Shown: positions 8,036 to 48,221 of the stretch, piece by piece
Numbering within the stretch: position 1 is the stretch's first letter
Layout of the letters: every line of letters begins with the position of its first letter
NCBI GenBank assembly: GCA_963518665.1
Contig: CAUQKR010000002.1
Coordinates: 27 to 64,026, forward strand
Source: an uncultured Candidatus Altimarinota bacterium
GTDB taxonomy: Bacteria > Patescibacteriota > Gracilibacteria > BD1-5 > UBA6164
DNA length: 64,000 nucleotides
Direction of reading: 5' to 3'
Made by a program: the position numbers and the translations under genes
Notes under the pieces: model-generated
The model's input: only the letters and a program-made list of their open reading frames with translations
The model's database searches: none
What the model was told of the DNA's origin: nothing

Positions 8036-8097
8036 ACAAATAAAAATTTTAAATAAGTAAAATAAATTCAAATATGAATTCAAAGAAGGAAAAGGAG

Positions 8098-8170
8098 CTA
8101 CACAATCATATTTATTCCTTATTTAAATACGCAAAAAACTAGCACAACCTTTCAGAACTACACAATCATA
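8098..8170 (-). repeat. 13-nt direct repeat (ctacacaatcata) x2 exactly 60 nt apart in the rpoB 5' leader
   Basis: Copies at 8098-8110 and 8158-8170. A related ctagcacaacc lies at 8139-8149. Confidence 0.6.
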
Positions 8171-8187
8171 GTTGTACTTAGGTCAGT

Positions 8188-8215
8188 ATTATATATATTT
8201 TCCTTTAAAATGCAA
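8188..8215 (-). promoter_or_regulatory. candidate sigma70-type promoter for rpoBC
   Basis: Minus strand TTGCAT (8215-8210), 16 nt, TATAAT (8193-8188). This would give a leader of roughly 150 nt. Confidence 0.4.
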
Positions 8216-8217
8216 GA

Positions 8218-8252
8218 AAAAAGATTTCTTTTTAAAAAAGAAATCTTTTTTT
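8218..8252 (-). terminator. intrinsic terminator after the large secreted protein gene
   Basis: A-run, agatttc, loop, gaaatct, T-run. Near-identical copy at 12134-12166. Confidence 0.8.
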
Positions 8253-8253
8253 A

Positions 8254-10884
8254 TTATTTAGAAAATCCTTTTGGTGGATTTGATTGGATTTTTGCATCAT
8301 ATTCAATTTTCACTGAATAATAATTATCTTTATCTTCACAATTTATCAAAGGTACTTTTCTAATAAAGTTTAAATCAAATTTTTGAGCTAATTCAAAATC
8401 ATTTGTAGTTTTCCCACCTGGTAGTTTATATTCTCATTCTACAACTGCTCATCAAATTGTATTTTTTGTAAAAACAGTTCATAAAATATCTAATTTATTA
8501 AACAACTTATCATCAGAATAAGGAATTCAATTTTTATCTGCACTTCTTATTGCTCAACTTGCAAAAATAGAAGCTTTTATTGTTTTTACATTATTAGAAA
8601 TATAAATATTTCAAGTTGTTTCATTTCCTAAAACATTGTAATTATCTTTTAAAACAATAATTCATAATTTTTTACCAGAAGTATTTAAATCATTTTCTAT
8701 AAACAAGTTTCAATTTTTTACAATAATTGTTTCAAAATTTAGATTATTACCAGAAATTGTTTCAGTTTTTCATTCTATATATTTGACTCCATTTAAAATT
8801 TCTCAAGATTTCATTCATCTTGTTAGATTTGAAGCATTTTTAGAAATATTTCAAATTAAATCTGCTCTAGATAAATCTGAAATATTTGATTTTTGTCCTG
8901 TTGCTACTGCATTTCATTGAGACTGAGTTCATCAAATAACTTTTACTCATAAAGTAGTAAATTCACAACCATCAAGTTTTGCTCCAGATAAATCATACCT
9001 TGCTTTTCAGTCAAATCAATTATGTTTTATATCATAAGAAATTTTTAATTTATTTTTTGGTATTTCTAAAATAACTTTTGATAAAGCCTCAACTGCTTTT
9101 TGTCATTTTTCTATATTAAATCTCAAACTAAACCCTAAATAAGACCTAAGTACATCAAGTGAGGCAAAAACAAATTTTTTCTCAAATTTATCAATTTTAT
9201 AAATTCAAGTACTTTCATCTTTTTTAATTAAAATATTACCTTGTGCCAACTCTAAATTACCATTTTTTATAGAAGTTCCATTTACAAAATAATCTATTAA
9301 ATTAAATTTATATTTTTGAAAATCTCACAATTTTGGTTTTCATGCCCAAGCTTTTGTTCCATCATCAATAGAAATTCAACTCAATTCTACTCAAGGTGTA
9401 AATTCTTTAGAGTTTGTACTTTCTCAATTAAAAATATAATCAATTTTTCTTCCATCTTTTTTTCATTTTGCATTCCATATATTTACTAAAATAAAAAATT
9501 TTTCTTTAAATAAAAGAGGATTAAAAGAATAAAGTTCTAAAGAATTATCAGTTAATTTATTTGGAATCTTTCAATTTATAAGTTTATCTTCTTTTGAAAA
9601 TCATTCTACATCTCTCAATTCTTCAAAAATTTTTCCAGAAATATTTTTATTCACCTCATTATCAAAAGAATCTTTTATTGTAAAATTATATCTAAAATTA
9701 TCAGCTAAATTTGCAACTGCTGAATTTTTTATTGGTTCATTTTTTAAAATAGTTTTTGCAGTCAAATTTAAATTTGGAACAATACAAATTTCTACACGTT
9801 TTGGTAATCAATCAGATTCTGGGGTTGTAACAGTAGAAATATTATTTTTATCTACATATCAAGCAACTCCTAAATAAAAACAATTATCTTTATCAGCATT
9901 TTTTAAAGATCTATTTGAATCTGGGAATCTTACATTGATTATATCTCCAGTTTTACCAAAAAATGCCACATTACAATTTGGATTATTTCTTTGATCTCAT
10001 GAAGGATATCAACAATAAGTATTACCAAATCTTCAAACTTTTTTAAAAGTAGAAACTTGAAAATCTTTCATTTCTATTGGAGCTCCATCAATACTTGCTG
10101 GAGTAGTTCATATCTTTAATTTTAAAGTATCAGTTGCATAACAATAATATTTTTCACCTTCTTGAATACAATTTGATTCTCCATTTATTCAATTTTTTTC
10201 ATTTACCACAGAAATAGAATTAATTTTCCCAGGATTAAAACCTTGCTTTAAAACTATATTTATATTAGGAATATTAAAATTTCTTGCTTTTAATGGTTCA
10301 CTTGGAGGTAATTTTGTGATAGTTTTTTTAGGATCTGTTGGATCTATAGTTGTAAATTCTCATACACATTCTGAAGGATCAGAATAATCAAAAGTTCAGA
10401 AATCAATATTTGTTGAAGCTCTTCCTAAAAAGGCTTGATTTAAATGATTTCTTCATTTAGCATCTGAAACTAAAAATAATGGTGTTGTAAGTTTTAATTT
10501 TATTCTATCTAAAGGTAATCTTCAAGCTTTTGTAGTAATATCCTTTCCATTTGCAGTAAAATCATACTCTTTTGTAATATAGCCACCTTTAAACTCACCA
10601 ACTCTTACATAATCAGAAAAAAATTTTTTAGCTGGTAAATTAAACTTTTTTCTCAAATATTGTTCTATTTCATTATTACTACTAATATAATTAAAATATG
10701 GGAAAATGTCATATCAACCTCAACTATGGCTAGTTCAACAAGCTTTATTATATAATGTATAATTAGCAAAAACTTGTACATCTACTCATGCTCAATAATA
10801 AATATTATTCACTCTATCCCAATTTGCACTAACTGTTGAAGAAAATAACATTGTAGCTAAAAATATAATAAATAATTTTTTCAT
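8254..10884 (-). CDS. large secreted Cys-rich surface protein (876 aa), paralog of 12169-15096
   Basis: ATG 10884, TAA 8256-8254, length divisible by 3. Signal peptide MKKLFIIFLATMLFSSTVSA. The ORF is open only with TGA as sense. The C-terminal ~250 aa align with the paralog (GNIYISNNV, VFTKNTIGGA, LPGGK, EYDAKIQSNPPKGFSK-stop). Confidence 0.85.
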
Positions 10885-10912
10885 AAAATATTTTTTATAA
10901 ATATAAAATTTT

Positions 10913-12019
10913 TTAATAAATATCTGAAACTATAGCAGTCCAAGTATTATTTTCTGGATCTATTTTTATTTCAGCTTCTTTTTCTATCCAAATATTTTTA
11001 TTTTTATCATATAACCAATAACCATTTTTTTCATTTCAGAAAAAATCACTTTGCATCAAAGCTATATCATCTGGTGATACTTTATAAGTTATTTCAATTT
11101 TATCTCAATTTTTTACTTGTAAAATGTCTCAATTATCAGATATAAAATCTGTAAAAGCCATTCCACCACTTTCTAAATTAACAATTTTTCATTCTTTTGT
11201 AATAGCTCTCATATTTAAAGAAATATTCTCATTAGAATTTACATCTTCTCATTTTATAAAATTTACCTTTGTAGTTACATTTCATTTGAAACATTTTCCT
11301 TCATTATCAACCAAAGAACAAGTTGGAATATTTATAGAAATAGTATCTGAGTCAATTTTTGTTCATTTATCAAGAGAAATTTTCTTTTCTAAATCAAGTT
11401 TTTTAAGTTTTAATTCTCATCCTAAAAAGCTACCTTCTCAATTAAATGAGTTTAAAACTAAAAATCCATCACCATACCCATCAGCTCTACTCATAATAGA
11501 AAATTTTTCTATTCATTTCGGCCAAACAAATGGTTTTTTAAATTCTCAATTCTCAAAATTTCAAAATTTTATTCAATTTAAATAAATTGATCATTTTTTT
11601 ATTTTCTCCCCAGTTTTAGAATCTAAAATTTCTAAATTTAAATCAAAATCTCTTTTTATTTCTACTGGAAGTTTTTCAGCTTCTTTCATAAAATCTTCAA
11701 ATTCTATTCATCAATCAACTCTTTTTGTTAAATCTGCTTTTTTTGTAGAATCGATATTTTCTAAAAATTTTTTTCAAGCTTTTAATAGTGAATTTTCTGG
11801 TTCAGTATTAGAAAAAGCTAATAAATCTATATCATCAGCAGAAATATTAAATCTATTTTCTGCTATTTTTTCTTTAGATGATTCAATAGTTACCCCGTCA
11901 TAAATAGTAACTTTTTCATCTAAAATTTTTGTTCAAGTTTCCTCTTTTTGTTCTTGATTTTTTTGCCAACAAGAAGTAAGAGTTAAAACAAGTAAAAATA
12001 CCAAAATATATTTTTTCAT
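10913..12019 (-). CDS. lipoprotein (368 aa), paralog of 15121-16227
   Basis: ATG 12019. MKKYILVFLLVLTLTSC lipobox. TAA 10915-10913. Exactly the same length as its paralog. The central beta-rich segment ...GSIYLNGIKFGNFENGEF...GYGDGFLVL resembles carboxypeptidase-regulatory-like folds (weak). Confidence 0.8.
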
Positions 12020-12133
12020 AGTTTTTATTTTTTATAAATTAAAAATAATATAATTATATTAAATCATAATTAAAAAAAAATTACAAGAAAAACAACTTGA
12101 CATTTTATTTATATATTTAAAAATATATAAATA

Positions 12134-12166
12134 AAAAAGATTTCTTTTTTCAAAGAAATCTTTTTT
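12134..12166 (-). terminator. intrinsic terminator, copy of the 8218-8252 element
   Basis: A-run, agatttc, loop, gaaatct, T-run, directly after the stop at 12169. Confidence 0.8.
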
Positions 12167-12168
12167 AT

Positions 12169-15096
12169 TTATCTTGAAAATCCTTTTGGTGGATTTGATT
12201 GAACTCTTGCATCATATTCAATAGTAAATGATGGGTTATCTAATACTTTTCCATTTTCACATTTTACTGGAACTTTTCTAGTATTATTTAAATCATAAAC
12301 TCTTGATACTTCATATTTTCAAATTTTTCCACCTGGAAGTTTATTTATAATTGAACCTCAAATTGTATTTTTTGTAAATAAACTTCATTTAAATTTTAAT
12401 GCTTTATTTAATTCATGGTCTTTATAAATAATTCCATTATTATCTGCACTTATAAATCAACCATCAGCATAAATTACAGCATTTATTTCAGTAACATCTT
12501 TATTTACAAAAATATTTCATTTTCCAGAAACTTTTGTTCCTTCAGAATTAATATTTTTAGTTACATCAAAATTATCATTTAAAACAACTATTCAATAAAG
12601 ATTTTTTGAATTTGTAGCTATATCTTTTGAAATATAAATATTTCAATTTCTAACTACAAGAGTTTCAAAATCTCTAAAATAATCATTTCAAGTTACATTT
12701 ACATCACCAACTACATATTTTACTCTGTTTACAACAGCTCCAGATTTTAATCATCTTACAAGATTATTTGCAAATTTTTTAATATCTCATTTTAAATCAA
12801 GTTTTGACATATCTGTAATATTTGCAGCAGAATCTGTAGTGTTTGCTATATCTCAAGTAGCTTGCCCTCCTCAAATAAGTTTTACTCAAAGAGTTTTTAC
12901 TGTACAAGAATCAGCAGTTCTAAATTCATCTAATTTATATTTTATATCTTTTCAATTCTTATGGTAAGAAACATCTAGTCATTTTACTGAAATACTTAAT
13001 CAATTTTTAGCTTTTGAAGAATTTTGTTCTCAATCGATTCACAAAGTAATTCTAAATATATATTCTAAGCCATTTTCTCAATTAAAATTAGTAATTAGTT
13101 TAATCGGTTTTGGTTTAACAACTTCAAATAATTTGAAAACTACTCATTGTGGTAAATTAAAAAATTTTTTAAAATCATCACTTGCTTTTCCTCAAAGGAT
13201 TCAGTTAACAATACTTCCTAAAGCTCATTTATCTTTTACAATAAATTTATATAATTGTTCTCTTCCTATTTCTGGTATAGCATCCCAAGTAGTTCAGTTA
13301 TCATTTGAGATTTCAATTGATTCAGCAGCTAAAGGTTTTTTGAAATTTAAATCTCAAAGATCAAGCATTATATATCATTTTGTAACATTTCAATTTCCAT
13401 TTTTACCATTTCCTGAAGCTCCAAACTCTAATCAGTTTTTGTATCTTCCTTTTCTTTCAGATAATTGATAATTATTTGCATGTTCTGGTATTTTTACCAT
13501 AACTTTTATATTTTTATAATTTTTTGGATGTAAACTTTTTACATTAAAAGCCAAAGTAGATTTTCCAAAACTTTTAGTATCTGAATATAATTTATCTGCA
13601 TCTTCTCAAATAAATTTAACTTCTATTCAAGAAGTATAAGGTATTTCTGGCTCTATTTTATTTTTATATTCATCTTTTATAATTTGATTAATACTATATG
13701 AATCATTTCCATTTGCATATCAACCTCATTTTTTCTGTAAATTTCATTCTTTTTGAACTGTATTTGTTGGAATAATATCAACCTTAACTGATGAAGTAGC
13801 TATTGATGATCAACCAGAAATATAAGAAAAAACTATCATACAGTTTTCACATAATTCTTTTGTAATATTTTCTTTAGGTTTTTTAGTATTCTTTAATTCT
13901 ACACTAAAATCTTTAAAATATCACTCTCATTGATTTGGTATTATAGTAACTCTTCAAGTTCAAATTGTAAAATCATCACTTCTTTTTATTGAAACCTCTA
14001 CTGCTTCAACTTTTAATTCTTTTTTTCAAAATGTACCTATTATTTCATATCTAAGTTTTGAAAAATCTATTTTTCCATCTTTTGCATTTATAAAATATTT
14101 TCCTTTTTCTCAATATTGTCAGTTTATAGTTAAATTATCTGTATTAAATCTTGGTTGTTGTTTAGATAATAAAGTAGCATCATCAAATTTAAATTGATTT
14201 TCCTCTTTTCAATCAGATGTTTCAAGTCATTTACAAGTTATATCTACTGGGTGAAGTTTTATATTTGTTGTAGTATAATTATGCTGAGTATAATCCCAAT
14301 TATATAAATCTGTACAATATCCAGATTGAGGAGCAGGAGCTATTTTAGGATCTGAACAATATCTATCCCATAAATTTTTACCATCTCTAGCTCTATACAA
14401 ATCTACTTGATTTGAGCTTTTAGCAGTTCCAGAATAATTTCTCTCAAAAACTTTATAAATTATTTCTACATTATTGTTTCATGAAAATCTATACTCTAAA
14501 ACATCTAAATTATATTTATTTTTTATTCAATTAGTTAAATTTTTTTCATCTCAAAAAACCAATACTTTATCTACATTATAACTTCATAGAGTATAATAAA
14601 CTCATTTTGATGTAAATCTAAATCTTATTTCATCACTATTTGAAATCTTTATATCACCTCAAAATCTTATAGTTATTCCTTTTTTATCTAGATTTTGAAC
14701 AATAATATTATTTCATTCTTTTTTTATATTTAATCAGCTTCCAATAATTTCAAAATTATAAATTTTTCTTCTTAATTCTTTCCACTCTCAGAATTGCTTA
14801 TTTTGACAAGAATCTAATTTAAATTTACTGCATCCAGGAATAGATAAATTTAAATTTTTTCAAACAGTAGTATGTTTAATGTCTCATATTTCAATAACAC
14901 CAGGTTTTTCAATATAATATTCTCTTTCATATCTATGATGACCTCATAAATTAAATTTTGCATCTAAAAGACAAGTATCAGAATTATATTCCCATTCAAA
15001 AACATTTGTTTGATCTACATTTGCTTTTACTATTCAAGTTAATCAAATACCAAATAATAATAAACTAACAACTAAAATTTTTTTTATTTTTTTCAT
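12169..15096 (-). CDS. large secreted Cys-rich surface protein (975 aa), paralog of 8254-10884
   Basis: ATG 15096, TAA 12171-12169. Signal peptide MKKIKKILVVSLLLFGIGLTGIVKA. C-terminus ...GNIYISKDI...LFTKNTIGGS..LPGGK...EYDARVQSNPPKGFSR-stop. Confidence 0.85.
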
Positions 15097-15120
15097 TTCT
15101 TTATATTAACAAAATAATTT

Positions 15121-16227
15121 TTATTTTTCATAAATAAATTCATAATTTCATTTTTCATCTAAAATCTTCATTTTAGATTCTTTCCAAACTCAATTATCTG
15201 TTAAAACCCAAAATGGAGGAATTCCATATTTATCAAGTTCTGTTTTTCATAAATAAACATTTTTTGGAACATTTTTTAAATCCATATTAATTGCCTTATG
15301 TTGATTTTGAATAATTCAACTTCAAGTAAATCATCATTTTAAATCAAGTTCTTCTCCTTTTTCATTATAAGCTTTTATATAAGGCATTCCAAAAGTTACC
15401 ATAGAAGTCCCTGTTAGAGAACCTTTTTCATCAAATACATCTAAATTAAAAGCATTTGCATCATTATTTGTTTCATCTAAATCAAAAAAATATAATTTTA
15501 CTTTTCAGTTATACTCTTTCCCATCTTTTGTTAAATAATTATTACCATTTGTTTTAAAAGTAAAATTTTCCGTTTTTTCATAAACTCTTTGAATTGAGTT
15601 TTGTTCTTTTTCTAAATCAGCTTTTACTAATTTTGGTAAAAAACTAATTTCATCTCAAGTATTTTTTAAATTTGCTTTAAAATGGAAATCTAAATAACCT
15701 TCTTTTGAATATTTTAATCTATGCGCAAAATTTGGTTCTAAAGAAATTCTTGAAGAATTTTTAACTTCTTTTCCTCAATCAATTGTTAATTTTACATTTT
15801 CTAAATATTTTCAATCTTGATCAACTGGGGAAAAAGATGCAACAACTAAATTTTTATTCTCACAAAATTTTGGATCATTTTCTTTTTCACATAACTCCTT
15901 TCTATTTTTTAAAGCATTTTCATAATCTCAAACAAAAGATTCTAAATAAGTTGCTTTTTGTTTATTTTCGATTTTTTTATCATTTTTTAGAGTTTCTATT
16001 TTTTCATAAAGATTTTGACTTCCTGTTTTTGTGTACATTTCATTTGAAATATCAAACATAGAAATAAATCTAAAATCTTTGGGTTCTTCTTCTTCTTTTT
16101 CTACAATTTGTTCTTGATTTATTCAAGTTTGTGTTGTAGAACTAGCAGTTTCCGGTTTAACTTCCTCTTTTTGTCAGCATGAAGTTAAAAAAGTAATCAT
16201 TAAAAGCACTAAAAAATATTTTTTCAT
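15121..16227 (-). CDS. lipoprotein (368 aa), paralog of 10913-12019
   Basis: ATG 16227. MKKYFLVLLMITFLTSC lipobox. TAA 15123-15121. Confidence 0.8.
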
Positions 16228-16329
16228 ATATTTTTATTATTAAATAATTAAAATACTCATTGTTATATTAAACCATTTTTATAAATATTTTTCAAGAAAA
16301 ACAGCTTGACAGACTCTGTAATTTATTTT

Positions 16330-16357: not shown

Positions 16358-16437
16358 ATTTAAAAAGCTCTACAAAAAGATTTTTTTTAGAAAAATTATT
16401 ATTTTTATTATTTTTTGCATAATTTTAAAAAATTTTT

Positions 16438-16506
16438 ATAATATGAAATATTATTTTTATAATATGAAATATTATTTTTATAATATGAAATATTATTTTT
16501 ATAATA
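16438..16506 (+). repeat. 21-bp tandem repeat x3.3 (ataatatgaaatattattttt) immediately upstream of mltG
   Basis: Identical units at 16438-16458, 16459-16479 and 16480-16500, plus a partial fourth. Each unit holds the inverted repeat ataatat-gaa-atattat, and each unit junction forms TATAAT. Confidence 0.9.
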
Positions 16507-21204: not shown

Positions 21205-24200
21205 TTATTTTATCTTATAAACAGCATATTTTCATTTATTAAAATTTTTAACTATTTCATCCTCTGTTTTTCAAATATATTTTTTCAAATAATAAAATTT
21301 TCCAGAATCAAAATCAGAAGAATTTACAAAATTATAAATCTCAGAAATACATTTTTTTATTTTTGTGTTTCTATAAATTTTATTTACATTTTCATCATAA
21401 CATTCATAAGTGCCATTTACAAGGCTAAAAAACTTGGCTTTATCTCCATTTATTTTTTCCAAATCTGTTGCAAACATTAAACAAACACTGTCTGTATGAA
21501 TTATTTCTAAATTTTTTGCAGTCAAGGTTTTCAAAAGTTTTTCATATCTATTTGTAAGTCAATGGGTTTCAGAATCATCAATTGTTGCTGCTCACAAATC
21601 AAGTAAAATATATTCAAAACCAAGTTTTTTCATATTTTCAAAAGTTTTTTCTATATTTTTTTCATCTAAAAGAAAATCATTAAAATAAAATAATAATCAG
21701 TCTTCATAAATTCTTTTTTGATTTTCTGCAACATAATATTTAAAAAATGTTCAAATTCTAAAAATATTTTTTTTATTTAAAAAACTTTTTGGATACAAAA
21801 TTCATTTATAAATATTTTCTAAAGATCTTTTTGCTTTTTCATTTCAATTTCTAATTTGAATTTTTAAAAAATCAATTATTTGTAGAATATCAATTTTTTC
21901 TAAATCAAAATTAGATAAAATTTCAAAATCAACATTTTTTTCTAAAAATTCTTTTTTATTATTTATATTTAGTTCAAAAAATATTTTTTCATAAGGATAA
22001 TGAAGGTCAAAAATATCTACCAAAGAGGAAGTCTTCCAAGTTTTATAATCCAAATATGCTTTTGAAGTCAAATTTGAAACTGTATGAGGAAAAGATGTAA
22101 AAATTATAAAAGCTGAAAAAATAGTCACAAAAATTAAGCTTCAATAATATTTTAAATTTTGATTCTTAAGGGAATAATTTGAAATATAAAATCCTCAATA
22201 TCAAATCATCAAAAGTAAGCAAAAATACATCGTGATTCCATACCAAACAACTCAAAAACTAGAAATCATCCAAAGAAAAATATAAATAAAAGAAAAAGTC
22301 AAATTTTGTCTAAAAATAAAAGTTTCTTCAGATTTTTTCAAAAAATAATTTAAAATTAAAAATGGAATTATGAAAAATAAAAATATTATAAAATAACCAA
22401 AAGGCAAAGTTATTTCAGAAAGCAAATCTTTTATTTTTTGCAAGAAATTTGTATTTTTTTGCCAAAGATTCAAAATCTCATTTTTTTCAGAAATATTTTC
22501 TTTTTCTATTTTATTTTTTAGCTCTGAAATATTTTCAGAACTAAAAATATAACCTTTATTTTTTTCTGTAAATATTTTTTCAATTGTATTTTTGGAAATA
22601 TTTTCTGGAATTTTAGCTACTTCTACAGGAAGTTTAATAAAAAACCAAACTTCGAAAAAAGCAAAAATTATGAAAACAAGATAAAAATTTTTGTTTCTAA
22701 AAAATGGCAAAAATATAAAAATAAGTGGTATCAAAGCAAAAAATATAAAAGAAATTTCTGTAAATTTTCATCATTGATTTACTTGCATTGTTAGATTCCA
22801 AAACATATTTGTATAAGGCAAAATTCCCTCTTCATATCACAAATATCTTTTCAAATCCTCATTTGTTGTTACTGGATCCTCTAGTCTTCTTTTAGCTCTT
22901 TCTCTATATTTTTCATCTATTTCTTCAGAAGAATAAATATTTTTCAAATCAAGTTTTGGGCTATCAATTTTTCAATTCAAAATCCCAGAGATTGTGATAT
23001 TTGGATAAGTTTCAATAATATTTTTTGTAAACCAAGGCAAAAGTGAAATAAAAATTCAAATAAAAAAAATAATTATTATTTTTAAAAATTCTATAAATTT
23101 TTTATTTTTTCTAAAAAATAAAATTCAAAAAATTATTATTCAAAATCATAAGAAAGATAAATTTAAAAGCAAATTTGATGAAATTGCTACATTCATCATT
23201 CACCATAAATTGGCTAAACTAAAACTAGAAAAAAATAAAAATAAAAATCAAAATAAACCAAAAACTCAAAAATAAAAAAAGCTTAAAAGTCCTAAAATAG
23301 AAACAATTAAAAAAAGTGAAGTAAATTTTATAGAAAAGGCAAATCATGTCAAAATTCAAATTATTCAAAAATACCAAAATGAAATTTTTTCTCAATTTTC
23401 ATTTTTTTGCAATAATTTATAAAGAAAAAATACAATAAAAGTCGTAATAAAAAACAATCATTGATCAAGTTTCATATCTTTAGCTGAATGAAAAATACTC
23501 ATTGGCAAAGATAAAAACAAAGTTGACAAAATAATGGGTAAGTTTAAAAATGATTTTTTAGAAGAAAAAATTTCAGAAAAAATTAAATTTAGAGTCAAAA
23601 AACTCAAAAAATATCAAGAAAAATTTAGAAAAAAAGCAAAAACTGGCTCAGATAAAAGATATCAAATAGAAGTAAAAATTTGCCAAGAATACATTTCTGG
23701 GAAATTTCAAACTCAGCTAGAATTAGCCAAAATATTTGGGTAATTCATATAAACTCACAAATCATCCCAACCAATTGGAAATGGACGAACGATCGATATT
23801 ATTCAAGTTCACAGAACAAAAAATGCAAATAAATAAAAAATTTCTGTTGTTAATAATTTTATTCAATTCCCTTCAGTTTTACTTATTTCAAACTTTTTTG
23901 TAAAAAATCATTGCAAAAATCAAAAAATTTCTTTATATGAAAAAATTCAAAAAATAGCTAAAATTCAAAAAACTACAAATAAGTTTAAAAATCAAAAAAA
24001 TGAAAAAATAGTTAATAAAAAAATAAAAGAAAAAAATCATAAATTTAGTGAAAGTAAAAATCTAGTATTTTCAGAAAAATCTTTTATTTTAGGTAATTTT
24101 GAAGATATTTTTTTTCAAAATCAAGTTGTTATAAAAAACAAAAAAACTGGAAAAATTCACAAAAAAATAATTTTTGAAAAAAATAAAATAGAATCTGAAA

Positions 24201-24573
24201 ACAAATCTAAACTAAATTTTCAATAAAAAACATTTAAAATATTTCAAAAAAAGTTTTTAAAAAATGCGAAATCAAAATAAGCTTCACTTAAAAAAAGTAA
24301 AAAAATCATAAATAAAGAAAATATTTTTGCTGGAGTAAAAGTTACTTTTTCTTTATTTTTAGATGAAAAAATAATTTTATAAAAAATATATAAAATTAAA
24401 AAAAATCAAATAAAAAATAAAAAGTTTTTATCCATAGAAAAATATTTTCAAAAAATTTCTACTTTTGAAAAAGAAAAATCATTATGTCCAGGAAAAATAA
24501 CATAATAAAGAAAAAATATCAAACTAGAAAAAAGAGCTAAAATAAGACTCTTTAAAAGAAAAATATTAAACAT
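21205..24573 (-). CDS. 1122-aa polytopic membrane protein, possibly a GT-C-fold glycosyltransferase
   Basis: I walked this frame codon by codon from ATG 24573 to TAA 21207-21205; the only stops are TGA. It joins track pieces 21271-21534, 21844-22128 and 22252-22734. Many TM helices. The acidic loop RPFPIGWDDLGVY sits after an early TM segment, as in GT-C enzymes (inference). Confidence 0.8.
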
Positions 24574-39361: not shown

Positions 39362-41275
39362 TTAATTCCCCCCCCCCAAGTTTTGGCTTAAAATTCAGGT
39401 TTTTCAATCAAGGATTTTATTTGATTTTATACAACCTTCTTCTTCGTTTTTACGATATTGCGTCAAATATCAATATTGTTCTTTAAAGCACTTTCAAGTC
39501 ACAAATTTTAATCATTCTCAAGGAACATATGCTTTATCTATTGAATTTGTTTTTAGATAATAAACATAAAGTTCTCATCTTTTTAAAAAGAAAACTTTAT
39601 TTACTGCTCCAGATGCCTCATGCTTAGTAATTCAAAAATAATTATCACTTTTAGTTATATCAGAAAAATTTTTTATATTTCTATCAAATACTTTTTTTTC
39701 TAATCAATTTAAAACTTTACTATAATTTTTTTTTACAGCTTCAGGTTGATACTTCCCATCTTTACAAATATTTTGAATTGTATCTATTTTTCATCATTCA
39801 TTACTAGCATAAATTCTAAAACAATTTGCAGAATAATAAATATTATCTGGAGTTTTTACTTTTGATTCTCCAGAAAAAGTTAGTTTGATTTTATCATTAT
39901 CATTATTATATAAATCAAATTTTACTCAAGATTTTGTAACTGGTAAATCTCATTGTCTATTACCATCATTTTTAGACTTATAAAATTTTTTTCATTCATA
40001 AAATTCATCTAAAGATATTTCTAAGATTGTTCTCTCTTCAGAATCAATTAAACTTTCTGATTTCACTGTTCTTTTGATACAGTCAGAATTATAACAATCA
40101 TCTGGAAGCTCATAAACTACTACATCTGGAGCAAGCTCTCAACCTTTGTTTTCTGTTACTTTATTTAGTGGATATGGAATTTTATCTGCTGGTATATCAA
40201 CTCTAATTTTTTCAGTTGTACTTCTTCCATTTTTTATTCTGATAATAAGTCTTTCTCCAGGATTTAATGTTATAGGATTAGAATTTCTTTTTATTATATC
40301 AATTTTTCATTTAACAAGTATAAATTGTTTTTTATCAGCATTTACTCAAAAAACAGTTCATCTAACTGCTGCCGTTGTATCAGCTGTAGTTACAGAAAAA
40401 TCTGATTCAGATTCTCTTTGACTTCAAGCAAAAATCCACATACTTCCAGCATCTAAAAACATTGCTATTTTTGATTTATCATTTCATTTTACAAAAGTAA
40501 ATAAATCATTATCCCTTCAAAAAGTAAGTTTTATATCATCTTTTAAATCAAGTCTAGCTATACTTCATTCTGAAAAATATAAATCATAATATTTTTTTCA
40601 ATTCTCTTCAGTTGCTAAATCTACTATTTTTCAGATTTCTACATTATTTTTAAAAATTTTTCAATCTCTATACTCTAAAACATCTTTTTCTTCAAAAGAG
40701 TTTCAATTTTTATCTGTTGCTGTAAGCAAAACTTTTTCTGGATTATATGGAAGTTTTCCTTCTCAGTCAGCTATAAAATAAGGTCAATTATATTCTCTAA
40801 TTAAACTTATTGTTCATTTATCCCCTGTATAGTTTCCAGATATTTTTGCCAGATAATCAGCTCAGTTTTTTATAACTCAAGCAACTTCAAAAGTTTGTTT
40901 ATCTTTTAGAAGTCCGTAAGCATAATATTGGTTATTTCTTGGATCTCTTGGGATTTCACTCAAAAAATTTGATTGAGATAAAACTCCATAAACTCAGATA
41001 GATTCTGAATCTTTATCAGAAAAATTTTCATGGCTATATCATCACTCTTTGTTAAAATAATTCAAAGTTCCATTTGGAAGTGATAATTCTTTTTTTTCTG
41101 TTATTTCTGAATTTAGTGCAACTCATAAGTTAGAAAGTTGACTTTCTATTGTGGCATTTATAGTTTTTTGTTTTGAATCTCCTGAGATTTTCATCACTAC
41201 AAATCATAAAAGTATCAAAATACTTATAACTATAATTATTTCTACAAAAGAAAATCATTTTTTGTTTCTTTCCAT
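39362..41275 (-). CDS. giant type IV pilin-like protein (637 aa as written; about 891 aa if fused across the G tract)
   Basis: ATG 41275. MERNKKGFSFVEIIIVISILILLGFVV is a prepilin signal with G|FSFVE. The ORF ends 2 codons after the G10 run (TAA 39364-39362). Confidence 0.8.
39368..39377 (-). repeat. homopolymeric G10 (C10 on + strand) inside coding sequence
   Basis: Read directly: tttaattccc cccccccaag. A G/C run of this length stands out in this AT-rich window. Confidence 0.95.
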
Positions 41276-44510: not shown

Positions 44511-44540
44511 AAAAAAGACTTTTTTAAAAGTCTTTTTTTT
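44510..44540. terminator. bidirectional terminator
   Basis: aaaaaaagactttttt aaaagtctttttttt. Confidence 0.8.
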
Positions 44541-45480
44541 AACTATTTTTATTTTTTAGTCAAAAATATCAAGCTGGAAGTAATAAAGCTAAAATCAAAA
44601 TAATAAACATTTCAGGTCAAGTTTGAGGAAGTTCTTCTTTTGTTTTTGATAGAGCTTCTACATTTTTCCCTACATTTGAAGAATCAAAATCTTTTGTAAC
44701 CATAACTCTTCCTGTTGAAGTTTCTTCAGTTGTTTTTGTTTCATTATTTTTTGTTTCATCTGCAGAATTTAAGTCTTTTGAAGGTTCTACAGTTACTTCA
44801 TTTTCAGTTTCTATTTCTCCTCATTTAAATTTTGCTTCGCTATCAACTCAAAATTTTATATTATTTCCAGATTTATCATAAATAGCCAAAACAGTTACTT
44901 TATATTCAACATCTTGTGTAGGAGTTGCATCAAGTTCTAGTTCTACTACATTTTTTTTATTTTCCACTGATTTTGTTTCTTTTACTTTTAGATAATCACT
45001 ACTATCTTTTACAGCTTCGATTTTAAACTCCGCATCCTTAAATTTTGAAGAATCTAAATCTTTTGAAAATTCTAAATGTAAAACTTTTTCAGAAATAAGT
45101 TTAGCTTTTGTTATAGAAAAATTTCCAACATTTGAAGTAGAGTTTCCCAAAGTTAATTCTAAAGCTTGACTTTTAAAAACTTGAGCTCAGTTTTCATCCA
45201 TTCAAATAAGGCTTAAATAGTAAGTTTTTCCTGTTTCAAGTCAGCTTAAATTATAAGAATTTGCTTCAATCATATCTGTTTCTCATAGAGATTTTTTAGC
45301 ATTTACCTCATCACTATAAGTAATTTGATAATATTTTGCTTTTGAGTCTTTATCCCAAGATAATTTTGCTCAAGTTGCAGTTTTTGTTTCTATTTTAAAA
45401 CCTTTATCAGCAAAAACTGAAAATGTAATAAAAAACAATGCTACAAAAGTAGCTACTTTTAGAATAATTCCTTTTCTCAT
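44539..45480 (-). CDS. LPXTG-anchored surface protein with FN3-like domain (313 aa)
   Basis: Signal peptide MRKGIILKVATFVALFFITFSVFA. FN3-like segment GFKIETKTATGAKLSWDKD...YYLSL. C-terminus EELPQTG-PEMFIILILALLLPAGYF-GLKNKNS-stop. LPQTG lies at 44631-44617, and its Gly is a TGA codon. Confidence 0.85.
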
Positions 45481-45572: not shown

Positions 45573-46163
45573 ATGAATAATTTTTTAACTAAAAATAAAA
45601 AGGCTTTTACACTTATAGAACTTGTAATAGTTTTAGCTTTGATTGGGCTTTTTTTACTTTTTACAAATCCTTTTAATTTCAATATTTTATCAAATGAACA
45701 AAAATCAGAAATTTTTGCAAATAAAATAATTTCTACTCTAGAAACAAGCAGAGATGAGGCAATAACAGGAAAAGCCTATAGAAAAGATGATTGAAGTTTT
45801 GAAGAAATTTTTTCTACAAATTTAGAATTTGGAAAAAATAAAAAAGTTATTGAAAATAAATATAAAAGAAAAAATAATGAAAAAATTTCTTCTTCATCTA
45901 TAAAACTACCAGATGAATGAGAAATAGAAAAAATTTATTATAATGATAATTCAAATGAAGCAACAAAAATAATTATAGGACTTTATAATAATTGAAAAAT
46001 TGAAATATTTAAAAACTGAGAAAATCTGCCAAAAATAAATTGAAAAATATTTTTTGTAGTAAATTATAAAAATGCTAGAAATAAAATAACTTTTGACCTT
46101 GTAAGCTGACTTGCTATAAAAGAAAAATGTAAAGAAACTTGTGAAATCCCAGATCAAAAATAA
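45573..46163 (+). CDS. minor pilin / pseudopilin-like protein (196 aa)
   Basis: MNNFLTKNKKAFTLIELVIVLALIGLFLL is a prepilin signal. Track ORF extended through TGA to TAA 46161-46163. Confidence 0.8.
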
Positions 46164-46889: not shown

Positions 46890-48221
46890 TTATCATCAAA
46901 GAACAGAAAGTAATTCTTCTAAAGAAGTCTCTCCAAGCAAAACTTTTATAAGTCAATCTTGCTTTATTGGAACCATTCAATCTCAAACTGCTTGAATTTC
47001 AAGCTGAATTTTTGAAGAATTATTTAAAATAAGTTTTTCCAAACCTTCTGTCATTTCCAAAATTTCATAAAATCAAGTTCTTCATTTATATCCTGTACTA
47101 TTACAATGAGGACAACCTCATTCTTTTGCTTTATAAAGATCAATTTTTTCTTTATTTTTAATATATTTTCAAATATTTTTTATAAAAAAATCTCTTACTT
47201 TATCTGAGGCTTCATATTTTTCCTTGCAATGAACACAAAGTTTTCTAGCAAGTCTTTGTGAAATAATCATTCTAAGAGAAGAAGTTATCAAAAGTGGGTC
47301 AATTCCTAGATTTACAATTCTTTGAATAGTATGAACAGCAGAGTTTGTATGGATTGTAGAAAAAACAATATGTCAAGTTATACTTGCTTCAACTGCAAGT
47401 TTTGCAGTTTCTTCGTCTCTTATTTCTCAAACCATTATAATATCTGGATCTTGTCTAAGTAAACTTCTAAGTCCTCTAGCAAAAGTAAAATTTATATCAG
47501 GATTTATTTGTGTATGATTTACTCATTTTATTCTATATTCTACCGGATCTTCAAGTGTAGAAATATTATTTTGCTCTGGATCAAACTGAGATAAAAGTCC
47601 AAAAAGTGTAGTAGATTTTCAAGAACCTGTAGGTCAAACAGCCAAAATCATTCAATAATTATCTTTTAAATGTTTTTCTATTTTTACCATATTATAAGGC
47701 ATTATTCACAAATCTTGAAGTTTTAGTGCATCTGCCTCTTTTTTCAAAATTCTGATAACACATTTTTCTCAATAAATAGTTGGTATAACAGAAACTCTCA
47801 TATCAACTGTTTTTCAAGCAAAAAGTTTATAAGAAATTTTTCAGTCTTGAGGTAACCTATGCTCATCTATTCTCAAAAAAGACATAATTTTTATTCTAGC
47901 CAAAATCGGGTCTTTTTGCAATAAGCTAAAAGATTTATAGTGAACAAAAGCTCAATCTATTCTAAATCTAATCAAAACATCTTTATCGTTTGGCTCTATA
48001 TGAATATCTGAAGCTCTTTTAGTCAAAGCATTCAAAAAAATATCATTTACAAGTCAAATAATAGCAGAATCTTCAGTTTTATTTCCATAATATTTTAAAT
48101 TTAAATCTGAAGATGTAGCTCATTCTTGTTTTGAAACAACTCAAAAAAGCTCATCAACAGATGATTCTGCTTCTGATTCTTTTTTTCAATTTCAAACAAT
48201 TTTTTTCAAATTAAAATCCAT
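46890..48221 (-). CDS. pilB: type IV pilus assembly / type II secretion ATPase, PilB/GspE family (443 aa)
   Basis: Walker A GPTGSGKST (two of its Gly are TGA), [24 protein letters not shown], and the tetracysteine CVHC...CPHC. Confidence 0.92.

Follow-up and report, generated by a model that had tools for sequence, protein, structure and literature searches.

Large secreted proteins built from immunoglobulin (Ig)-like domains are known from several surface systems. In invasin and intimin (Yersinia invasin, 1cwv; intimin, 6tpl) a rod of Big_1-type Ig domains carries a C-terminal module and is anchored on its N-terminal side. The Gram-positive surface-layer (S-layer) proteins SbsB (4aq1), SbsC (4uj6) and Sap (6qx4) are secreted arrays of Ig-like beta-sandwiches, and in the archaeal two-component SlaA/SlaB S-layer (8qox) a large outer protein is encoded next to a membrane-anchored beta-sandwich stalk. 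Here we describe two tandem cassettes that resemble these systems in layout, found on the minus strand of a 64,000-nucleotide stretch of contig CAUQKR010000002.1 from an uncultured bacterium (hereafter the window, whose positions are used throughout). Each cassette consists of a lipoprotein gene (lipoA or lipoB) followed by a gene for a large secreted protein (bigA or bigB). The two-gene unit is probably part of the cell surface, and possibly a means of holding on to other cells.

The window belongs to the Gracilibacteria, as detailed below. Almost no members of the Gracilibacteria and Absconditabacteria have been cultivated, and the lifestyle presumed for them is growth on, or predation of, other bacteria. 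Accounts of how they attach have so far appealed in general terms to type IV pili and "large surface proteins", and the cassettes provide a concrete gene family. Its members share a C-terminal module, and our survey of relatives yields a rule, namely that a protein with this module comes with a cognate membrane-tethered partner. The rule makes predictions about interaction, localisation and abundance.

Two recoded gene pairs and the C-module family

Read with the standard bacterial code (table 11), the cassette region contains no long open reading frames (ORFs). Once UGA is read as sense, the number of ORFs longer than 150 amino acids (aa) in the window rises from 3 to 60. UGA occupies invariant glycines of RpoB (SALGPGGLTRERA, GRHGNKG and RFGEME) and accounts for 4-6 % of the codons in the cassette genes, which is more than tryptophan would explain. 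We therefore dropped a reading with table 4 and translated with code 25 (UGA = Gly). This code, which is used by Gracilibacteria and Absconditabacteria, assigns the window (GC content about 23 %) to Gracilibacteria. The closest named relatives of the lipoproteins come from "Candidatus Gracilibacteria bacterium", and one distant locus lies on a Candidatus Altimarinota chromosome. In the databases, most proteins of the window are stored as code-4 mistranslations, with W in place of G, or as fragments.

With code 25, the four ORFs lie exactly where the preliminary description had placed them. lipoA (15121..16227, minus strand) and lipoB (10913..12019, minus strand) each encode 368 aa, beginning with M-K-K-Y-x-L-V and a signal peptide that ends in the lipobox L-T-S-C17, an instance of the pattern [LVI][ASTVI][GAS]C with Cys17 as the predicted lipidation site. 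The LPAM_1 model of Pfam and NCBIfam lipoprotein models match both proteins at the N-terminus only. After spacers of 24 and 28 bp, respectively, come bigA (12169..15096, minus strand; 975 aa) and bigB (8254..10884, minus strand; 876 aa), and bigB is followed on the same strand by rpoB and then rpoC. Both large proteins have cleavable Sec-type signal peptides (...VKA/NVD in bigA and ...VSA/NWD in bigB, the slash marking the cleavage site), followed by a type-specific N-terminal region, a predicted Ig-like rod and the C-terminal module. Two labels given to them at first sight need correction. Proteins of this size are not "giant", and "Cys-rich" overstates 10 cysteines per protein (1.0-1.1 %, compared with 0.75 % in the window's proteins). 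Several of the cysteines are closely spaced, and one pair brackets the C-terminal module (C731/C946 in bigA, C640/C849 in bigB).

The preliminary description had also noted a shared C-terminal module behind divergent N-terminal parts, and this is borne out: bigA and bigB are 40 % identical over ~400 aa at the C-terminus (E = 5e-56), and upstream of this region no similarity between them is detectable. The N-terminal type of bigA (A-type) is recognised by an invariant mature start (A/NVDxT), a GGHHxYxRxY...D...H cluster and a Cys pair, whereas that of bigB (B-type) starts with A/NWDR and lacks the His cluster. The sequence A/N-x-D (ANVD, ANWD, ANRD, ANSD and others) occurs directly after the signal peptidase site in 28 of 101 full-length members of the family described below, spanning otherwise unrelated N-terminal types (residues 26-30 of bigA, residues 21-24 of bigB), and it could serve as a processing, metal-binding or docking motif.

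Neither large protein was found to contain a transmembrane segment, an LPXTG motif or an SLH domain, and Pfam gave no match to SLH or CWB2 repeats in bigA, bigB or 10 relatives. We considered whether the module might be a C-terminal sorting signal (LPXTG/sortase, PEP-CTERM, PGF-CTERM or T9SS CTD) and rejected this. Such signals consist of a short motif, a transmembrane helix and a basic tail, or of a CTD of 80-100 aa, whereas the large proteins end (...NPPKGFS(R/K)) without a hydrophobic segment in a module of ~280 aa. Unlike bigA and bigB, a 313-aa fibronectin-III protein encoded at 44539-45480 (minus strand) ends in LPQTG, a hydrophobic helix and KNKNS, a sortase-type wall anchor, so the organism does use LPXTG anchoring.

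A word-index homolog search with bigA returned only the copy from a sister strain. We then relied on an exhaustive HMMER search of 1.84 billion representative proteins, for which the query was a sister strain's bigA in its code-4 database version (P0001). The search recovered a family of 166 representative clusters, 124 of them below 1e-10. Nearly all matches align to residues ~700-975 of bigA and lie at the extreme C-terminus of proteins of 600-1470 aa. We refer to this region as the C-module. On the minus strand of the window it comprises about residues 700-975 of bigA (nt 12172-12999; HMM E = 1e-89) and about residues 600-876 of bigB (nt 8257-9087; HMM E = 2e-101). Conserved motifs within the ~280 aa include ...RKNA... 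in a helix, ETL(I/V)VKNGN, GIIVL, GN(I/V)Y(I/V), YADG, FT(R/K)NTIGG, LPGG and YDLNYxR, with Q(S/T)NPPKGF at the very end; a PPKGF-like ending is present in 131 of the 151 members retrieved. In most members homology reaches ~200 aa further upstream, into Ig-like domains, and beyond it the N-terminal regions vary and fall into types. An N-terminal hydrophobic segment was detected in 89 of the 101 full-length members. The W-for-G signature of code 4 marks 119 of the 151 retrieved sequences, and 26 are correctly translated. Such mistranslation, or fragmentation under code 11, hides the family from standard annotation, and the members recovered are unnamed or annotated as hypothetical proteins only.

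The C-module has no sequence match in Pfam, NCBIfam, PHROG or PDB, and PDB sequence searches with two C-module profiles returned nothing beyond a chance-level match to a VCBS-like repeat. Scans of Pfam, NCBIfam and PHROGs with the four proteins and correctly translated relatives gave lipobox and weak Ig matches only, and the regions upstream of the module in some members weakly match Big_1, Big_13, PKD or DUF4215. A link to a characterised family, an outcome that the preliminary description had named as refuting a new system, was thus not found in Pfam, NCBIfam, PHROGs or PDB sequences. In the literature on Gracilibacteria, Vampirococcus and related Candidate Phyla Radiation (CPR) bacteria, we found no description of this family or its pairing; what these papers say of type IV pili, predicted S-layers and large surface proteins is general. 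The C-module family is undescribed, of a familiar general kind, and restricted to Gracilibacteria and Absconditabacteria lineages.

Pairing, duplication and transcription of the cassettes

Scanning the full 260 kb of fetched sequence with the C-module HMM identified 10 independent loci. At each of them the C-module gene has an ORF immediately upstream in the same orientation. Eight loci have gaps of 5-31 bp, and in the other two (L005 and L007) the genes are adjacent once uncertain start calls are allowed for. An N-terminal hydrophobic segment is present in 9 of the 10 upstream partners. The pairing, whose absence in relatives had been proposed to refute the system, is conserved at these loci. 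In the remaining locus, L008, the partner (86-1453) is a lipoA homolog with an N-terminal extension of ~120 aa and neither a hydrophobic segment nor a lipobox. It is the sole exception to tethering, and may reflect a start-site or assembly problem.

Homologs of lipoA stand directly upstream of bigA-type genes in L008 (42 % identity), L012 (72 %), L013 (44 %) and L014 (50 %), and homologs of lipoB directly upstream of bigB-type genes in L009 (54 % identity) and in GCA_013333755.2. A transmembrane helix replaces the lipobox in the lipoA homologs of L013 and L014, which argues that membrane tethering is the conserved property. A third partner family, with a signal peptide and a C-terminal transmembrane helix, occurs upstream in L007 and L011 (25 % identity, E = 4e-54), where the large proteins are of a third type (27 % identity over nearly their full length), and in L010 a transmembrane-anchored TPR protein precedes P0035. 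Searches with lipoA- and lipoB-family HMMs did not detect the partners of other subfamilies, so the partners are not one family.

This variety of partners, which come from at least three or four unrelated families, together with the one partner that lacks a signal peptide (L008), would be expected if the upstream genes encoded unrelated envelope proteins that are merely co-transcribed with the large genes, without functional pairing. We regard such operonic convenience as very improbable, however. The pairs occur in different neighbourhoods (rpoB, murC, glmS/greA and secDF), across which the partner family follows the large protein's N-terminal type; where start calls are reliable, same-strand gaps all measure 5-31 bp; and the pairs move as units. 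Judged from these sequences, partner family and N-terminal type vary together, and the pairing is conserved and cognate-specific.

The tandem arrangement exists in the window and is not fixed. Locus L012, from a related species with synteny to the window, has a single cassette A before rpoB at the same site, and cassette B is found elsewhere, in GCA_013333755.2. Tandem placement is thus specific to the lineage, and the pairs are modules independent of each other. On its 3' side the bigA-type gene of L012 is followed by a terminator and rpoB leader identical to those after bigB in the window (window 8036-8253), and its final residues (EYDAKIQSNPPKGFSK) are identical to the ones at the end of bigB in the window, not to those of bigA (L012 14440-14680 and 18221-18691). 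These similarities suggest that cassette B was gained or lost through recombination at the conserved 3' end. A further difference is a NUDIX gene that lies between rpoB and rpoC in L012 and is missing from the window.

The duplication of the pair, asserted in the preliminary description, is supported by the lipoproteins and by the flanking sequences. BLAST matches lipoA and lipoB in the signal peptide only. Profile comparison with hhalign, using 17 lipoA and 10 lipoB sequences, aligns 332 columns collinearly (probability 97.9 %, E = 4e-13, 16 % identity), and shows the two to be remote homologs over their whole length. The lipoA family comprises 18 clusters, all named "hypothetical protein", and the lipoB family 10 clusters, for which the sole name is "hypothetical protein [Candidatus Gracilibacteria bacterium]". 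The two cassettes also share promoter-like and terminator sequences. Given the end-to-end homology of the lipoproteins, the whole cassette (element, partner, large protein and terminator) is an ancient duplication. With 16 % identity between the lipoprotein families, the ongoing local diversification that had been supposed gives way to this older event.

Both lipoprotein genes are preceded by an 18-nucleotide (nt) element, GTCAAGYTGTTTTTCTTG, and a -10-like box. Upstream of cassette A the element GTCAAGCTGTTTTTCTTG (16293..16310, minus strand) is followed ~20 nt later by the box GGTTTAATATAA, and upstream of cassette B the element GTCAAGTTGTTTTTCTTG (12084..12101, minus strand) is followed by GATTTAATATAA. 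The window contains 2 exact copies, compared with 0.5 copies expected even when up to 3 mismatches are allowed, and the element is kept at both sites in sister strains L001-L004. We consider these elements a putative promoter or operator of cassettes A and B.

Terminators after both large genes, reported in the preliminary description, are present at the positions given there. After bigA, an intrinsic terminator-like hairpin with a T-run at 12127..12172 (minus strand) overlaps the stop codon (dG -20.9 kcal/mol, z -9.8), and after bigB a second one lies at 8217..8251 (minus strand), upstream of the rpoB leader (dG -13.4 kcal/mol, z -4.6). These AT-rich hairpins share the core AGATTTCTTT..AAGAAATCT, which is found nowhere else in the 64 kb; the number expected by chance is 0. 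A generic terminator scan detected neither, because it requires at least 3 G-C pairs; they were spotted by eye and then confirmed by folding (energy and z). The most likely reading is that each cassette is a self-contained transcription unit, in which the shared element precedes the partner gene, a spacer of 24-28 bp separates that gene from the large one, and the shared hairpin terminator follows.

Near the lipoA start, at 16414-16505 on the plus strand, the yceG/mltG ORF carries three copies of a 21-bp unit at its 5' end ("MKYYFYN" x3), which form a ladder of promoter-like matches. The unit is present in a single copy in the related species L012, and the divergent control region between yceG and lipoA looks as if it holds a variable tandem repeat.

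We compared evolutionary rates between the window and sister strain L001 (two strains). rpoB and rpoC have 0 nonsynonymous and 12-16 synonymous differences, giving a nonsynonymous to synonymous ratio (pN/pS) of 0. The ratio is 0.76 for bigA (22 nonsynonymous, 7 synonymous), 0.74 for bigB (9 nonsynonymous, 3 synonymous) and 0.2-0.3 for the lipoproteins. The values for the large proteins suit proteins that are exposed and weakly constrained or diversifying. In bigA, 10 of the 22 amino-acid differences lie within residues 732-875 (~15 % of bigA), that is, in the C-module helix and first strands; bigB shows no such cluster.

Components of type IV pili are encoded elsewhere in the window. They comprise a 637-aa pilin-like protein that has a FecR domain and a methylation motif at its N-terminus (39362-41275, minus strand), a 196-aa pilin-like protein (45573-46163, plus strand) and a PilB/T2SSE ATPase (46890-48221, minus strand). 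A 1122-aa polytopic membrane protein without a Pfam match (21205-24573, minus strand) has identical synteny in L001 and L012.

Predicted structures and possible roles

The fold comparison with Foldseek that had been recommended for the window's proteins was run on models of database homologs, P0021 for bigA and P0153 for lipoB. It returned Ig-like arrays for the former and beta-sandwiches for the latter, and no enzyme fold. P0021 is a full-length bigA-type protein with 27 % identity to bigA over residues 23-973. Its AF2 model (mean pLDDT 84, the last 200 residues mostly >90) is all-beta to residue ~720, followed by a 14-residue helix, nine short strands and a small alpha/beta tail; the modelled N-domain is soluble and beta-rich. 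In the PDB, P0021 best matches arrays of Ig-like domains, namely invasin 1cwv, intimin 6tpl, SiiE 2yn5, the S-layer proteins SbsC, SbsB and Sap, and macroglobulin domains of alpha2-macroglobulin and complement C3, with 1cwv and 6tpl as the best specific fold matches (probability 1.0). In BFVD, the matches are phage tail proteins with Big/FN3 domains. The template modelling (TM) scores of these matches are low, as expected for a flexible multi-domain rod, and in this model the large protein is a rod of Ig-like beta-sandwiches. The AF2 model of P0153 (61 % identity to lipoB; pTM 0.73) has N-terminal helices followed by beta-sandwiches, one of which is clearly of the transthyretin-like / CarboxypepD_reg / CnaB type (TM to target 0.6-0.7). 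No enzyme fold was found in the fold search with P0153.

We hypothesize that each cassette encodes a two-component cell-surface complex composed of a tethered partner and a secreted Ig-like rod, a reading to which we give about an even chance. Both proteins would be exported by Sec. The partner would be held on the outer face of the cytoplasmic membrane by its lipid anchor, or by a transmembrane helix in other lineages, and would dock the type-specific N-terminal domain of its cognate large protein. The rod would end in the ~280-aa module, with its helix, short beta stack containing GN(I/V), and ...YDLNYxR...Q(S/T)NPPKGF tail. The C-module would perform one task shared by the family, for instance contacting the wall or lattice, oligomerising or contacting a partner cell, and the two cassettes would be ancient paralogs with two surface specificities. 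The biological role may be adhesion to host cells or an S-layer-like coat. The preliminary description had proposed a surface system for attachment or attack. Its surface component is favoured by the folds, the fast evolution of the large proteins and the conserved pairing; nothing points to attack, and neither a toxin, lytic or enzyme fold nor such a motif was found.

Several points weigh against the tethered-rod hypothesis. Surface-protein families mostly use their conserved end as the anchor and their variable end as the functional tip, which would place the C-module at the wall and leave the membrane-tethered partner without a clear role. The L008 partner has no visible signal peptide. The strain comparison is based on few substitutions, and the models are those of homologs at 27 % and 61 % identity, not of the window's own proteins. 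Finally, the fold searches with full-length P0021 (PDB and BFVD) gave generic Ig arrays and no match specific to the C-module.

The matches of P0021 to SbsB, SbsC and Sap raise the possibility of an S-layer or S-layer-like coat, in which large Ig-rich proteins form a lattice through C-module contacts and the tethered partner acts as a stalk, comparable to SlaA/SlaB of Sulfolobus. The P0153 lipoprotein model weakly matches SlaB (8qox_B), the cassettes have strong terminators and dedicated promoter-like elements, and a large protein without SLH or another anchor makes anchoring in trans plausible. CPR bacteria, and specifically Gracilibacteria, are predicted to have an S-layer whose genes have not been firmly identified (PMC6851277). 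However, the fold matches are to generic Ig arrays with TM scores of 0.10-0.14, family members differ widely in size and N-terminal architecture, with lineages holding several paralog types each, and cassette B is missing at this site from the close relative L012. The usual S-layer protein is acidic, a single species and very abundant. We consider a coat of this kind unlikely, if still worth weighing.

An extracellular enzyme or effector that acts on the envelopes or polymers of prey or host is slightly less likely again. The catalytic part would be the C-module, with its short stack of strands and invariant Asn, Asp, Arg, Thr and Tyr, or the A-type N-domain, and the partner would be a chaperone, an inhibitor or a positioning factor. 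The C-module has invariant polar residues (T167, N174, N216, N265, T266, D290 and R295 in alignment numbering), A-type N-domains have an invariant His-His...Asp...His cluster (GGHH...D...H), and beta-helix-like stacks are common among polysaccharide-active enzymes. Relatives such as Vampirococcus are predatory or parasitic (PMC8080830). Yet Asn ladders and conserved Gly and Asn are equally expected in purely structural beta-stacks, the His cluster is absent from B-type proteins, and the architecture (variable N-terminus, conserved C-terminus, partner gene upstream) is the reverse of that of polymorphic toxins. The earlier impression that the large proteins carry no recognisable catalytic motif also holds: no enzyme family was matched by sequence or, for the whole model, by fold.

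A broader proposal is that C-module proteins and their cognate partners form the main host-contact or envelope apparatus specific to Gracilibacteria and Absconditabacteria, the CPR lineages with UGA=Gly. In that case the C-module would be a new distal-tip domain for host attachment or opening, and the pairs of partner and N-domain would provide modular, exchangeable docking. We hold this only tentatively and think it improbable as a whole. If true, it would give a first molecular handle on host engagement by uncultivated epibionts or predators.

Comparison with described systems

Polymorphic toxins and contact-dependent inhibition (CDI) systems combine a conserved N-terminal delivery region with a variable C-terminal toxin and an immunity gene placed immediately downstream. 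This polarity is opposite to the variable N-terminus, conserved C-terminus and upstream partner seen here, and no toxin domain was found; we therefore rejected membership. The likeness to the MIB-MIP system of Mycoplasma is a conceptual analogy, consisting of repeated, diverged two-gene surface cassettes in a wall-poor, reduced-genome bacterium with recoded UGA. A relationship was rejected, as no sequence or fold relation and no protease domain were detected and MIB-MIP targets immunoglobulins of the animal host.

The lipoprotein model shares its type of beta-sandwich with SpaA (5hts), CnaB2 (8bdw), 5aq0 and the SusC NTE (9hfj), with TM to target of 0.6-0.7. In contrast to sortase-anchored pilins and CnaB proteins, the lipoprotein is predicted to be lipid-anchored, shows no sign of isopeptide bonds and gives no Pfam match to such domains; it also has an N-terminal helical region.

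Compared with the Gram-positive S-layer proteins, the large proteins lack SLH and CWB2, the similarity is generic with low TM scores, and there are many paralog types and not one dominant protein. Membership among SLH-anchored S-layer proteins was rejected for want of any SLH or CWB2 match in Pfam in bigA, bigB or 10 relatives. The layout of SlaA/SlaB is analogous to that of the cassettes.

Invasin and intimin, as noted, give the best specific fold matches. Two relatives have Pfam Big_1 matches short of the gathering score, placed immediately upstream of the C-module, and bigA and bigB have none. We rejected membership in this group, given that no N-terminal beta-barrel was matched by Pfam in bigA, bigB or 10 relatives and that Gracilibacteria are predicted to lack an outer membrane (PMC6851277). 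The large protein also has no LysM domain, the C-module is not C-type-lectin-like by any sequence test, and there is no homology at Pfam thresholds. Whereas invasin and intimin carry an anchor on their own N-terminal side, the anchor here would come in trans, from a lipoprotein or a transmembrane protein.

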